Shown: positions 35,821 through 40,252 of the stretch, one piece after another
Position numbering within the stretch: position 1 is the stretch's first letter
Layout: each line of letters opens with the position of its first letter
DNA from: Candidatus Marinacidobacterales bacterium
GTDB lineage: Bacteria; Acidobacteriota; Vicinamibacteria; Marinacidobacterales; SMYC01
Assembly (NCBI GenBank): GCA_965237955.1
Contig: OZ250169.1
Coordinates: 1,440,001-1,504,000 of the forward strand
DNA length: 64,000 bases
Direction: 5' to 3'
Notes under the pieces: model-generated
What the model saw: the letters and a program-made list of their open reading frames with translations, nothing else
What the model was told of the DNA's origin: nothing
Databases searched by the model: none
Translations under genes and position numbers: made by a program

Positions 35821-36803
35821 TCAGTCCTCAGGCTCCAGAGTTATGATGACATTTCCCTTCTTGCGCCCGGTGTCGACGTAGCTGTGAGCCTCGGCGATTT
35901 GCTCGAACGGATAGCGCCGATCAATGACCGGTTTGAATTCTCCGGCCTCAGCCAGTTCCGCGAGGAAACGCAAATCCTCTGCGTGCCCGGGTGCTGGCCC
36001 AGCGATTACTTTCTTGCTGCTTGTCATCGACACCCATGGAATCTGAAGCATGTCTAGCAGCCCACCTAAAACCAGAAGAAGGCGTCCTTTCTCTTTCAAC
36101 GAACGTTTGCTACGGGAGAACGGAGCCGTGCCGGCTGTATCGACAATGACGTCATAGGTTTCACCGTTTTCCGTAAAATCCTCTTTGGTGTAATCGATTA
36201 CATGATTGGCACCCAGAGATCTCACCATTTCCACGTTCGCGTCACTGCACACCCCGGTCACGTCTGCCCCGAAATGCTTGGCAAGCTGCACCGCACAGCT
36301 GTTCCTACCCCTCCGGAGGCGCCATTGACGAGTACTTTTTCTGCGCTCTGAAGGTTTCCTCTTCTGAAGAAATGCAACGCCGTTGTTCCGCCAAAAGATA
36401 TTGCGGCGGCTTTATCGTAGGTCAGATTGGCCGGTTTTAGTGCCACCGCCCCGTCTTCTGGCATGCATTTGTACTCCGCATGGCAACCCATGCCGGCACC
36501 GCTGAATGCAAAGACCTGGTCACCGACTTTGAATTTGTTTACGTCTTTGCCGACCGATTCAACTTCCCCGGCGAGCTCTGTCCCTAGAATAGGTTGCCTT
36601 GGTCTCGAGACTCCAAAAACCAAACGCGAGATGAACCCGAAGCCGACAGGCACATCGAGACTGCGCGCCCTCCAGTCCCCTGATGTTACCGTTGTCGCAT
36701 GTGTTTTTATCAAGACTTCATTGTCCTTGGGCGTGGGCTTTCCCACCTCCTTCAATTCAAGAACATCGGGCGGCCCATATCTTTCATACACAATTGCTTT
36801 CAT
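35821..36803 (-). pseudogene. NAD(P)-dependent alcohol dehydrogenase / quinone reductase (MDR), frameshifted near 36292
   Basis: YGPPDVL and NGASGGVGT in one frame, VQLAKHFGA...GRKKGNV in another. An IS sits 9 bp upstream of the ATG. Confidence 0.85.
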
Positions 36804-36875
36804 ACGTCGCCCGGTAGTGGTCTAGTTTGAAATCGAGGCCGCTGGATAGACGCTTGCCTTGTGGTATCCTGTGGT

Positions 36876-37121
36876 ATGCCTACACGAGCAAGCAAGAAAA
36901 AGAGGCCACGTGATACCAATCAACTTGCCTGGCAGATCGTACAGGAAGCTACCGGCCAGGCCCCGCTAGAAGAAGAGGAAGAAGACACGCGGAATCCTGC
37001 CGCTGTGGCTCTCGCGAAGCTGGGTGCGTCCAAAGGCGGTAAGGCTCGAGCTAAAAAACTCAGCCCGGAGCGAAGGGCTGAAATCGCCCGAAAAGCGGCA
37101 AAAACCAGATGGAAAAAGTGA
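36876..37121 (+). CDS. Small basic IS-associated protein ('histone H1-like')
   Basis: RPRDTNQLA...NPAAVALAKLGASKGGKARAKKLSPERRAEIARKAAKTRW; TG-G-TATCCT box just upstream. Confidence 0.8.
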   Translation: MPTRASKKKRPRDTNQLAWQIVQEATGQAPLEEEEEDTRNPAAVALAKLGASKGGKARAKKLSPERRAEIARKAAKTRWKK

Positions 37122-37285
37122 ACACGGGCTGTAATTAATCGCGTTGGTCTGGCTAGACGACCTATCGTGAAATGTAACTTCCCTCTACTGTAAATAACAA
37201 CAGCCCAGACGCAATCGCAGACGCCTAGTCCCTGTTACGATTTCTGGGTTGCGCCGTGTCCGCCTTCCTGTTACACTGATTAATC

Positions 37286-37681
37286 ATGGAAGCGAGAGAA
37301 GAACTACTTCAGCTGAGACAGCGTCTATCGGGCCGAATTGACGTCTTGCGCGCCGAGCTGGAAACCGTAGACGCATCGATCCGGCTCATCGAAAGAGAGA
37401 AAGGACTCGAACCCGCTTCTCACGGTGAGTTTGCGGAGATGGGCTTAACCGAGAGTTGCCTACGGATCCTTGAGGCTGACTTTCGCTCGCCGACGGAAGT
37501 CCGAGACCTTCTGATCCAGGGCGGCTATCCGAAATCAGACAGAAAGAAGCTTCTCGGATCCGTTTATGCCACTTTGAAGAGACTTCACGATGCGGGAAAA
37601 GTTGAGTTCCGAAAACGGCGTGGAGTAGGAGGACGAAAATATCGAGTAAAACACTACACTGCTGAACCGAGCGAAGAATAA
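37286..37681 (+). CDS. Hypothetical coiled-coil + winged-HTH-like protein
   Basis: Heptad-like N-terminus, then SPTEVRDLL...SVYATLKRL...GKV...KY; TG-T-TACACT box upstream. Confidence 0.65.
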   Translation: MEAREELLQLRQRLSGRIDVLRAELETVDASIRLIEREKGLEPASHGEFAEMGLTESCLRILEADFRSPTEVRDLLIQGGYPKSDRKKLLGSVYATLKRLHDAGKVEFRKRRGVGGRKYRVKHYTAEPSEE

Positions 37682-37708
37682 AGGGCGGGGCTCGAAAAAG
37701 CCCCGCCC
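37674..37708 (-). terminator. Intrinsic terminator on the minus strand (possibly bidirectional)
   Basis: GGGCGGGGCT...AGCCCCGCCC stem (37683-37708) followed on the minus strand by TTTATTCTT. Confidence 0.7.
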
Positions 37709-37910
37709 ACAGCACTCTTTTCAGTTTCCGGTCCTTCGGTGTGTTCACGCACATCGAAAAACATGGACCGGAAAAGAAGGAGGTAAGACGATGAAAGTAT
37801 GCTTCATCGTAGCCGTATTTCAGACGGCCAACGGATTTTACGCCGTGGTCGTCTGGATAATACGGCCCCCCGCTCCGGGTTGCTCCGGGGCGGGGACGCC
37901 TCCACTTTTC
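37675..37910 (-). ncRNA. Candidate structured non-coding RNA inside the IS
   Basis: Own promoter (TTACAA-17-TATCAT) and terminator; five mutually compatible stems visible by eye. Confidence 0.5.
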
Positions 37911-37982
37911 GTTTGCATGATAGCGCATAAAGGGCTGTTTTGTAACCCCAAAAATATCGGGAGAAGTGTCGTTTTTGCTTGA
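37791..37982 (+). CDS. Small ORF with hydrophobic N-terminus (candidate type I toxin)
   Basis: AAGGAGGT 6 nt before ATG; MKVCFIVAVF...FYAVVVWII; antisense to the candidate RNA. Confidence 0.4.
   Translation: MKVCFIVAVFQTANGFYAVVVWIIRPPAPGCSGAGTPPLFVCMIAHKGLFCNPKNIGRSVVFA
37917..37945 (-). promoter_or_regulatory. Sigma70-like promoter of the candidate RNA
   Basis: Minus strand TTACAA (37940-37945), 17 nt spacer, TATCAT (37917-37922). Confidence 0.5.
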
Positions 37983-38007
37983 CAATGCGTGCGCGAGCAA
38001 GCATAAT
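37976..38007 (+). promoter_or_regulatory. Transposase promoter with overlapping inverted repeat
   Basis: TTGACA-17-CATAAT, 7 nt before ATG 38015; TGCTTG...CAAGCA overlaps both boxes. Confidence 0.75.
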
Positions 38008-38014
38008 GTCTATT

Positions 38015-38839
38015 ATGAACAAGCTAGATACGAAACGACGAGTGCATGTGGTCAAGGCTCTGGTCGAGGGCAATAGCCTTCGTGGAACAGCGCGGATGAC
38101 GGGCGTTGCGCGGGCGACGGTCGAGAAGCTGCTTCGAGAGCTCGGCTACGTTTGCGCCATGTATCAGGACGTCGCCTTTCAGAACCTGCCCTGCCGGAGA
38201 ATCCAGGTCGATGAGATCTGGTCGTTCACCTACGCGAAAGCGAAGAACGTCGCACGGGCGAAAGCGGCACCCGAGGGCGCGGGCGATACCTGGACCTGGA
38301 CGGCCATTGATGCGGATACCAAGCTTGTCCCGTGCTGGCTCGTAGGGGGCCGTGACGCTGGCTACGCGACGGAGTTTCTACAGAACCTCGCGGGACGGCT
38401 TGCCCACCGCGTGCAGCTCACCAGCGACGGGCACAAATGCTACCTCCAAGCCGTCGAGGATGCGTTCGGCGGGGATATCGACTATGCCATGCTGGTCAAG
38501 CACTATGGGAACGCGCCCGAAGGTCAGAGGCGATACAGCCCCGCCGTCTGCACCGGAGCGACGCGGATGCGCGTTACCGGCGACCCCGACGACGCGCACA
38601 TCAGCACCAGCTACGTCGAGCGCCAGAATCTCACGATGCGGATGGCGATGCGGCGGTTCACACGGCTAACGAATGCCTTCTCGAAGAAGGTCGAGAATCT
38701 AAAGCACTCGGTCGCTCTACACTACATGTACTACAACTTTGTGCGGATCCACAGCTCGCTGCGCGTGACCCCGGCGATGGCGGCTGGCGTCACCAACAAG
38801 CTGTGGAGCATCGAGGACATGATTGGGCTGCTAGATTGA
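38015..38839 (+). CDS. IS1-like DDE transposase
   Basis: N-terminal HTH (EGNSLRGTARMTGV), QVDEIWSF, TSDG, TSYVERQNLTMRM and TPAMAAG motifs. Confidence 0.9.
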   Translation: MNKLDTKRRVHVVKALVEGNSLRGTARMTGVARATVEKLLRELGYVCAMYQDVAFQNLPCRRIQVDEIWSFTYAKAKNVARAKAAPEGAGDTWTWTAIDADTKLVPCWLVGGRDAGYATEFLQNLAGRLAHRVQLTSDGHKCYLQAVEDAFGGDIDYAMLVKHYGNAPEGQRRYSPAVCTGATRMRVTGDPDDAHISTSYVERQNLTMRMAMRRFTRLTNAFSKKVENLKHSVALHYMYYNFVRIHSSLRVTPAMAAGVTNKLWSIEDMIGLLD

Positions 38840-38920
38840 AACACGTAAAGATACTTGAGCCCAAAACAGATGGGAAGGCAAGCTCCCTCGGGGCGTCGCG
38901 TCTCCCGTAGTCTGGTTTCC

Positions 38921-39334
38921 TTAGATATCCTCAAAAAGGATCTGTTTCAAGGCAAGTCTGAGAATCTGCCACGGTTGGTACTGCCCTTCACCATCGATCG
39001 TATATCGGCAGTCCCCATCATTATTCAATTCTATTTTTAGAATGAGCGGGCCGTTACCAATTCGGGTTACGGAAATGTGGTCCGCCATCAGTCGGAACGT
39101 AACGTCAGCGGAACGTAGAAGAACTCCATCTTGCGGAGCTCTTGAGACTACGAGTTCCGTGTTGTCTTCTCCTGGTTCGCTAAACGACACGTCAAAACCA
39201 TCTTCTCGCTTGAGGCTTCGCTTTCTGCGCGTTACGTCATTTTGGGCTTGCAGCACAAGTTTTAGAAACTCATTCGATAATGAGCAGTCGAGTTGCGCCT
39301 GAACCCAGTCGAAATCGTCCGGTTTTGGACTCAT
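38921..39334 (-). CDS. Hypothetical passenger protein (AT-richer)
   Basis: 137-aa ORF converging on the transposase, inside the terminal IRs; no recognisable motif. Confidence 0.6.
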   Translation of the reverse strand: MSPKPDDFDWVQAQLDCSLSNEFLKLVLQAQNDVTRRKRSLKREDGFDVSFSEPGEDNTELVVSRAPQDGVLLRSADVTFRLMADHISVTRIGNGPLILKIELNNDGDCRYTIDGEGQYQPWQILRLALKQILFEDI

Positions 39335-39526
39335 TGCAATCAGTCTACTACAGGTCGTCATTCAAGTGCTACCACCGGCTTGGCCCGAGCTGCTATGGAG
39401 CATCGAGGATATGTTGGGGCTGCTGGATTGAAACTAGACCACTACCCGTCGCCCTGCAGGGTTGCTTTGATCCGGTCATTGTGGTCAGGCTAGCAGCTCC
39501 CGGGCCGGGACGATGGCGCCCGGTGT

Positions 39527-40252
39527 CTACCGACGCCAGCGAAGCTCGAGCTCGTAGTTGTCGGCTCCTCGTTTGTCGTCTTCGATGCGAATGATCGCGG
39601 TGTAGCCGTTTTTGGCGTCGGGAGCCTGGATGAGCTCGACGACACCGCGACCGTCCAGCTTACGGAGCGACACCGGGACGTCGCGCTCGGGCAGAGAGGA
39701 CTCGAACTCGACCCGGTCCTCGCGCACACCCTGACCACCCAGGTTGGTGACGGTGTGGCTGCCACCGCGGATCTCGATCTCGGCGCCGATGTCGACGCGG
39801 CCCTTCCAGCGAAACACGCCGTCGTCGCCATCGGAATCGTCGTTCCAGCGATCGTCGCTACGCCCATCGCTTCCCCAATCGTCACCCCAACCATCGTCTT
39901 CGTCCCAAACGACCTCGAACTCGTAGTCACTCGCGCCGCCGCGGCGGTCTTCGATACGGACCACGACGGTGTAGTCGTTTCTCTTGCTCGGTTGTTCCAT
40001 CAGCCGAACCGTCCCGCGGCCCTCGATGGGATGAAGCTCGACCTCCACGGCGCGCGCCGGAAGGGGCGCACTGAAACGGTGGTCCTGGTACTGGATGGGC
40101 TTCGCCCCCAAGTGGTCGACGCGAACGGAGCGGCCGCGGATCAAGATGTCGTCCGCGCCATCGACCCGGCCCTTCCACTGGAACCGCTCTTCTGCTCTCG
40201 GAGCGGTCGCGCCGGCGAGCATGACCAACAGAAAAAGCAAAGCTCGTCTCAT
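39527..40252 (-). CDS. Secreted protein with two internal ~95-aa beta repeats
   Basis: Signal peptide; FxWKGRVD...GRG.V.L...P...N.YT...IED..GGA..YE..W occurs twice around an Asp/Trp-rich linker. Confidence 0.7.
   Translation of the reverse strand: MRRALLFLLVMLAGATAPRAEERFQWKGRVDGADDILIRGRSVRVDHLGAKPIQYQDHRFSAPLPARAVEVELHPIEGRGTVRLMEQPSKRNDYTVVVRIEDRRGGASDYEFEVVWDEDDGWGDDWGSDGRSDDRWNDDSDGDDGVFRWKGRVDIGAEIEIRGGSHTVTNLGGQGVREDRVEFESSLPERDVPVSLRKLDGRGVVELIQAPDAKNGYTAIIRIEDDKRGADNYELELRWRR

Follow-up and report, generated by a model that had tools for sequence, protein, structure and literature searches.

The stretch analysed here, referred to as the window, comprises 64,000 nucleotides of contig OZ250169.1 (positions 1,440,001 to 1,504,000; assembly GCA_965237955.1) from a Candidatus Marinacidobacterales bacterium of the Acidobacteriota. 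Window positions 36813-39446 hold a 2,634-bp mobile element with terminal inverted repeats (IRs) of 16 bp perfect, or 19 bp with one mismatch, between two copies of the 8-bp target duplication CGTCGCCC (36805-36812 and 39447-39454). For one given site, the chance estimate is ~2e-5 for an 8/8 duplication and ~5e-10 for a 16/16 IR match. An earlier annotation made from the letters alone (the original prediction) had described these ends, the duplication, the 2,634-bp length and five open reading frames (ORFs), encoding a basic protein, a coiled-coil/helix-turn-helix (HTH) protein, a small ORF, the transposase and a convergent gene, all of which were confirmed within 36805-39454 (Table 1). The element is single-copy in its genome, G000, with a G+C content of 0.546 compared with 0.602 for the genome. 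Below, G009, G015 and similar handles denote relatives' genomes, X1-X5 sequencing runs, and L-numbers loci of related elements. The more unusual features of the element are its promoter targeting and the short scars formed of two facing IRs (IR-IR scars), not its cargo. The original prediction mentions neither of the two, nor does it note the duplicated transposase tail at the right end or the TTGCTT beyond that end.

Table 1. Features of the element and its immediate flanks (window coordinates; SD, Shine-Dalgarno motif).
Feature	Position	Strand	Remarks
Left copy of 8-bp target duplication	36805..36812	.	Single copy at empty sites
Left IR	36813..36831	+	Perfect over 16 bp, one mismatch over 19 bp; 19 bases retained in collapsed form
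-10-like box, TG-extended	36865..36870	+	5 nt before basic-protein ATG
81-aa basic protein	36876..37121	+	Core gene of family; homologues labelled 'histone H1' in databases
Promoter-like TTGCGC-17-TACACT	37249..37277	+	8 nt before 131-aa ATG; consensus match only
131-aa coiled-coil and winged-helix-like cargo protein	37286..37681	+	
Structured RNA region	37683..37946	.	Hairpin chain, SD at 37774; z = -11.35, 0/200 shuffles
Transposase promoter TTGACA-17-CATAAT (predicted)	37979..38007	+	7 nt before ATG, leaderless type
274-aa transposase	38015..38839	+	N-terminal helical (HTH) part and RNase H core
Transposase 3' end and inner 7 bases of former right IR	38800..38842	+	Sister element ends here
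137-aa convergent cargo gene	38921..39334	-	Family not recognised; own -10 box 39342-39347
Relic tail of second related transposase, fused to right IR	39392..39434	+	
Right IR	39428..39446	-	19 bases retained in collapsed form
Right copy of 8-bp target duplication	39447..39454	.	
-35-like hexamer TTGCTT	39462..39467	+	Outward position 16, 16 bases beyond right end; -10 partner poor

The transposase passes the cut-off of PF03400 (27.4 bits against 24.1), and its homologues, of which 2,009 clusters match at E < 1e-30, are named 'IS1 family transposase', so the predicted IS1-like identity stands. The best NCBIfam family is NF033558 (E 7e-15), but the score of 55.4 bits falls short of the equivalog cut-off of 100, which places the enzyme in a divergent branch of the IS1 family. 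The catalytic residues are likely D66, D138, and E202; across 74 sequences the first two are invariant and the third nearly so. In the predicted structure (pLDDT 86), three N-terminal helices precede the RNase H core. The best fold match is ISCth4 of the IS256 family (Z 13.9, root-mean-square deviation (rmsd) 4.1, 220 aligned residues, 14-18% identity), while the P element transposase (6p5a) ranks 32nd (Z 6.9, rmsd 5.5, 216 aligned). No THAP or GTP-binding domain is present in the 274 residues, and the Mutator family is not among their Pfam or NCBIfam matches. Apparent transposase fusions of 500-670 aa were dismissed as over-extended starts, as none of nine tested had an N-terminal Pfam family and the four viewed had an internal Met at the usual start.

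IS1 family members have IRs starting GGnnnTG and produce an 8-9-bp duplication; the ends of this element read GGTAGTG. E. coli IS1 has the InsA zinc finger and an insA/insB frameshift, whereas the present transposase matches no zinc-finger family and is a single ORF starting with three helices, with no such frameshift. The element also departs from the IS1 family, including the subgroup that carries passengers, in that a basic core gene is near-universal among its relatives, in its promoter-spaced targets, and in its IR-IR scars. This passenger-carrying IS1 subgroup, the ISMhu11 group, which ISfinder and Siguier et al. in 2009 are said to describe, reportedly has an HTH without a zinc finger and carries its passengers within one IR pair. 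With this subgroup and with transporter insertion sequences (ISs), the element shares a single-ORF PF03400 transposase of the Asp-Asp-Glu (DDE) type, GG-starting IRs, an 8-bp duplication, and passengers on both sides of the transposase. The element is thus an autonomous IS1-type cargo element, a transporter IS (tIS), and ordinary as such. Since the accessible part of PMC9330008 already describes tISs as a category, the novelty that the original prediction implied for cargo in an IS1-type element falls away.

The insertion is recent, as had been proposed. The search for an empty site in related genomes and reads that the original prediction suggested located one, with a single copy of the 8-mer, in G009, and an empty allele in runs X5 and X2. 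In G009 the flanks are joined and the 8-mer occurs once, with 7/8 bases alike. In X5 a 12.8-kb contig (depth 22) skips exactly 2,642 bases, 8 of which fit either side, and its flanks differ at 2 and 5 positions only. X2 contains the same 2,642-base skip at depth 5, and pieces spanning parts of the element are present in X1, X2, and X3. The adjacent zinc-alcohol-dehydrogenase-like gene (window 35821-36803, minus strand) is split into two ORFs in G000, and the insertion separates the start codon of this gene from its upstream region, one base upstream of the ATG beyond the duplication. The G009 counterpart of this gene is likewise broken, by a 127-nt deletion.

Related elements show a marked target preference. 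TTG begins at outward position 16/17 on one side in 42/61 full elements, while other position pairs give a mean of 4.3 and a maximum of 7, and the preferred TTG occurs on either side of the element. IR-IR scars have the same signature (17/36, control mean 2.4). For most members this puts a promoter-like box 15-16 bases beyond one end, and the DDE transposase likely selects sites ~15 bases upstream of -35 boxes and duplicates 8 bp there. Two findings temper this view: a TANNNT partner follows the TTG at 11/46 sites compared with 5/76 on the other sides, and the -10 at this element's own target is poor. The accessible part of PMC3942029 reports that the prokaryotic Mutator-like TnGBS, ISLre2, and ISKra4 insert 15-17 bp upstream of -35 boxes, with a peak at 16. 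They and this element have in common the -35 spacing, an 8-9-bp duplication, insertion in both orientations via symmetric IRs, and the IS256 family as closest fold. Their IRs, however, end in C and those of the element in G, and its transposase is much shorter and has no match to a Mutator hidden Markov model. The element hence resembles these systems in target choice but belongs to none of them. By analogy with TnGBS and ISLre2, targeting would run via contact with RNA polymerase holoenzyme. That an IS1-related branch inserts with promoter spacing points to an independent origin of this habit, or else to a link with RNA polymerase inherited from a common ancestor.

The second unusual feature is the scars. 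G000 contains 8 units of 32-41 bp that consist of two facing family IRs only, 6 with a perfect duplication and 1 with a 7/8 duplication; 2/8 carry the IR of this element. The shuffle control gave 0 such units. Only 3 intact family elements stand against these 8 scars, and no duplication-flanked family end pair between 41 and 2,209 bp occurs in G000. An unbiased hairpin scan of the same genome (25 rows) returned 6 distinct short hairpins with a perfect 8-bp repeat, all from this family. Conversely, 11 other repeat or IS types in G000, with 375 full-size end pairs, include no inward pair <100 bp. Among the jumping elements examined in G000, the IR-IR scar fate is specific to this family.

Scars extend beyond this genome and turn up repeatedly within the phylum. 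Five of 30 relatives hold 11 scars, 8 with a perfect duplication, and among 15 metagenome contigs there are 10 distinct scars of the same-IR type, 6 with a duplication. Of 73 pattern matches examined, 22 keep the duplication within one mismatch; these come from 15 genomes and all measure 28-44 bp, and 0/13 longer matches (45-58 bp) keep it. The raw count of the pattern (53/401 genomes) was not used as a reversed-pattern control gave a similar figure, and only duplication-flanked matches count; the phylum counts cover 70 examined matches among the matches listed (26 others are not listed). Remnants of intermediate size (59-89 bp) gave 2 matches in five scar-bearing genomes versus 13 in the control. 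Two scars are clean insertions of 33+8 and 40+8 bases relative to empty sites in 4 and 3 congeners, respectively. The relatives with scars are near-complete assemblies of few contigs, as would be expected of sequencing or assembly artefacts of hairpin-prone long molecules. Such an origin is hardly credible, given that short contigs, from fragmented assemblies and from metagenomes, bear scars too, that many have diverged arms and duplications, and that other IR-bounded elements are intact in the same assembly.

A probable collapsed form of the element itself appears in runs X1 and X2, where a contig joint links 36831 to 39428 with TT between them (19+2+19). Its depth is 8.54 in X1 and 2 in X2, the element contigs have depths of ~11.6 and 3.3, and the sums roughly equal the flank depths of 16-19 and 4.5-5.8. 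This joint, connecting one such unit to a full element, bears on whether the transposase inserts the 28-44-bp units ready-made, as miniature non-autonomous elements. The outer IRs of the units are indeed complete, duplications are present, and the target bias is shared with full elements; a 32-mer and a 33-mer are each seen again at unrelated sites. However, all 8 in G000 differ, at least 5 IR types are mirrored, and there is no amplification, unlike the ~113-bp multicopy miniatures of two other families. Two transposase-bound ends 30 bp apart would also be hard to pair. An origin as miniature elements is consequently regarded as very improbable.

The favoured explanation, which we rate as evenly poised between right and wrong, is a transposition-linked loss of the interior at the donor site, with the ends sealed by Ku/LigD end joining to give a ~30-40-bp scar. 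A copy-out-like first step would transfer and free one strand of the element. The strand left behind would fold back on its 17-24-bp IRs, the unpaired interior being degraded or skipped, and host Ku/LigD would probably join the stem ends, which overlap by 0-7 bases or gain a few bases in the process. Ku, LigD polymerase, and LigD ligase domains all score over cut-off in G000. Among 29 classifiable junctions, the overlap is ≥3 bases in 8 and 1-2 bases in 6, while 5 are blunt and 10 have extra bases; classification required the IR type in the reference set, and 17/36 scars in one set were unclassifiable. The accessible part of a preprint (10.1101/2023.06.07.543989) reports that IS1 makes circles, and that abortive copy-out is a route of transposase-dependent IS loss. 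ISApl1 (Tn6330) and IEE-enhanced excision, as covered in the same part, are comparable in their transposase-linked donor loss, microhomologies of 2-4 bases, and involvement of the PrimPol class, which includes LigD polymerase (10.1101/2023.06.07.543989).

Several observations weigh against this explanation. In abortive copy-out as the accessible part of the preprint presents it, approximately the whole IS including its ends is lost, whereas here both IRs and the duplications stay (10.1101/2023.06.07.543989). Parents are known for one junction only, and the extra bases elsewhere may be parental sequence or later mutation; 8/29 junctions would fit simple slippage. No circle or figure-eight junction, with abutted ends, was seen among the run-contig matches listed. 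The 19+2+19 joint likely derives from this same locus, but its flanks are not displayed and another locus with the same IR is possible, and X1 and X2 share one identical junction, which makes for one event at most. Ku is found in 28/31 relatives; G009 is one of these and contains several elements but no scar. Fifty mostly alphaproteobacterial genomes, each carrying a related transposase, gave 3 pattern matches, none with a duplication, and a stricter pattern found none in 201 alphaproteobacterial genomes, where the share holding the element was not counted. The lack of scars in these two sets indicates that collapse is not universal and is host-dependent. The presence of Ku as an explanation for the presence of scars was rejected on the distribution just given. 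Three end-spacer-end arrangements were seen in related loci and may be stacked insertions.

Overlaps at the junctions are also what would be left by slippage or annealing between the near-palindromic TTT(G/C)AAA cores in both IRs, aided by fold-back and involving no transposase. Family specificity would then stem from the internal palindrome of the IRs. The core is found in most family ends, a crossover within it gives exactly 33 bp, which is the commonest scar size, and several scars are that very product; the 8/29 junctions with ≥3 bases of overlap agree with this. The remaining 21/29 overlap by fewer than 3 bases, however, and the sole junction with known parents has two bases present on neither side. 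In addition, no such product came from the 375 end pairs of the other types, among which are several with perfect 14-bp IRs, and scars outnumber intact elements 8 to 3. Slippage is accordingly judged fairly unlikely. A related precedent is the nearly precise excision of Tn10, which happens rarely, needs no transposase, takes place at internal direct repeats that are fixed, and leaves a short two-end remnant between intact duplications. The scars resemble it in being short remnants of both ends with the duplications intact, but differ in that their junctions are variable and the remnants frequent and family-specific.

The limits on scar size raise the question of cut-and-paste transposition like that of the P element, in which a deep stagger would leave ~19-21 nt of each IR as 3' overhangs to be sealed by end joining. 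Scar arms keep 12-22 bases and sizes stop at 44 bp, both duplications are kept, and elements are mostly single-copy while scars are many. P element footprints similarly keep 15-17 bp of each end. The accessible part of PMC7776569 gives the P element a 17-nt stagger, an 8-bp duplication, and NHEJ (non-homologous end joining) repair. The Drosophila P element is alike in its 8-bp duplication, promoter-proximal insertion, long stagger within the IRs, and NHEJ donor repair (PMC7776569), the stagger being only proposed here. It is unlike in being a eukaryotic system with an 87-kDa GTP-dependent enzyme, whose fold matches the element's transposase weakly. A 274-aa protein of HTH and compact RNase H core, with the P transposase fold at rank 32 (Z 6.9) far behind ISCth4 (Z 13.9), speaks against this mechanism, as do the circles reported for IS1 (10.1101/2023.06.07.543989, accessible part) and the alphaproteobacterial searches without scars. 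It is considered improbable.

A tentative extension, more doubtful than not by a wide measure, is that the scars reflect a new route in which the -35-aimed transposase removes the element while one strand of each IR stays, through a deep staggered cut or strand peeling, so that every jump scars. If this were true, Acidobacteriota scars just upstream of promoters would form a readable record of past jumps. No promoter-targeted IS1 case and no description of IR-IR scars of IS1-type elements was found in the literature, with most subscription papers, including the main IS reviews, outside reach. The donor-site fate of circle-forming insertion sequences is an open point, and the IR-IR scar offers a distinctive, countable donor product. 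The question is directly testable given a widespread group of small (274 aa) transposases and one locus that appears empty, full, and collapsed. Scars also bring a stable hairpin into the part of a promoter where the UP element lies, and this could alter expression.

The gene content of the element was compared with that of its relatives. From 99 loci examined, 78 had candidate ends and 67 were unique elements with family-type ends, leaving out candidates with other ends and 4 duplicates. These 67 elements are 1.4-5.4 kb long, differ in cargo, and have an exact 8-bp duplication in 60/67 cases. The layout is a fixed core, formed by the basic gene at the left end and the transposase, with swappable cargo. 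The modular cargo of the original prediction is thereby upheld, as the 67 relatives carry different cargo and a sister element in G015 lacks the convergent gene, which is found elsewhere in that genome. The basic 81-aa protein, in contrast, had been listed as a passenger, but its gene is present in 66/67 relatives and belongs to the core. It matches no Pfam or NCBIfam family, its predicted structure consists of three helices, a fold search with this model gave no match, and a complex prediction with the transposase, at a score of 0.00, speaks neither for nor against binding. Homologues of the basic protein without this transposase type occur at G000:C1 867056-868157 and 3611702-3613342, near other small genes and a methylase-like ORF, and the basic core gene may be common to another element family.

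The 131-aa protein has weak PadR/TrmB matches below cut-off, and its nearest named Atlas cluster is HARE-HTH (score 0.89, 28% of members); its gene is shared with the sister element, and tblastn located it in 0/67 other elements. The RNA region looks like a type I toxin-antitoxin or small RNA locus. It contains a short, hydrophobic small ORF (37791-37982), a leftward promoter-like site (37946-37917), and a leftward terminator (37708-37683), has no Rfam match better than E = 1, and its hairpin-rich character is kept in the sister element. Reading the 63-aa small ORF as a full protein is doubtful, as ~23 codons are common to the sister, which stops after about 25. The convergent gene has no Pfam family, and a start at 39334 gives 137 aa, the length of 4/5 homologues, the first ATG being at 39361; it occurs in 1/67 related elements, as a 33% homologue in the same slot of L012. 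In relatives the cargo takes in a toxin resembling HigB and, as its partner, an HTH_3/peptidase M78 protein (in 18 and 25 of 68 elements), along with an SDH-type protease and HARE-HTH proteins. tRNA-like genes are found in 5/70 related elements (L007, L011, L013, L014, and L077; Gly, Ser, TTA anticodon, Leu, and Gln). A stretch inside another intact family member (G000:C1 1295221-1295521) presumably resembles a tRNA or tmRNA 3' end, going by a motif; ARAGORN made no call.

Leaderless, individually promoted genes had also been proposed, on the strength of four -10-like boxes without an SD. The boxes are present (TATCCT, TACACT, CATAAT, and TAGACT, at 5, 8, 7, and 7 nt from their respective ATGs) and an SD is lacking, but that of the convergent gene fits the start at 39334 and not the first ATG at 39361. 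Single boxes are weak evidence because a strict promoter scan of 36700-39600 found only 2 sites versus 1.3 +/- 1.3 in shuffles, and support comes from a family-wide test instead. In relatives, the transposase ATG is preceded by a -35 box in 45/51 cases, compared with 18/891 control internal ATGs, and by YANNNT at 5-8 nt in 34/51 compared with 58/891; an SD-like motif occurs in 1/77. The basic gene has YANNNT at this spacing in 25/48 relatives, against the same 58/891 controls. The proposal thus holds, as a well-supported prediction, for transposase genes and roughly half the basic genes across the family, while the other single boxes remain weak.

The right end of the element has a composite structure. 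A second copy of the transposase 3' end, 43 nt long, is fused to the right IR (38800-38842 versus 39392-39434, 88%). The two tails differ at 5 positions in 43 nt, with 3 synonymous changes and one Ile/Leu codon, which indicates that the second tail derives from a different transposase that was functional at one time. Over 36813-38842 the sister in G015 shares 79% of positions; its right IR, with the stop of the transposase inside, forms its end at this point, and L100, L106, and L108 end in the same way. In the window the former right IR is reduced to its inner 7 bases (38836-38842); the convergent gene comes next, and then the second tail with a complete IR. The element is likely a chimera of two relatives, in which the convergent gene would have been gained when a sister-like element joined a decayed neighbour and took over its right end. 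The convergent gene, with its -10 box, has an 82% nucleotide copy in a different context in G015, behind a methylase-HNH gene, and is apparently a late addition with its own promoter-like box. Going by a motif, the G015 context may be IS1595-like; a 75-aa piece there has no Pfam or NCBIfam match. A duplicated transposase tail as a general mark of cassette capture was rejected, with 0/35 relatives having >150 nt after the transposase showing it (one weak 17-nt match). Family ends or scars are stacked 8-16 bp from another family end at L055 6597, L166, L167, and L215. This stacking suggests that one promoter was hit more than once and that chimeras may form by such a path. In L095 the sister element abuts a 100-120-bp repeat with TTGACA inside its ends.

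Other repeats were noted in G000. A 1,315-bp multicopy element, presumably of IS3 type, has two of its ends side by side and facing outward at G000:C1 716013-716049, 3 bases apart, an arrangement resembling an IS circle junction or a tandem dimer. The ~113-bp multicopy miniatures share ends with two 1,087-bp IS types (10 and 1 copies), as at G000:C1 122805, 899650, 1147290, and 2891643. Also present are an 84-bp imperfectly palindromic repeat, which has dozens of copies, and the 100-120-bp repeat, for example at G000:C1 169239-169322 and 591228-591347.

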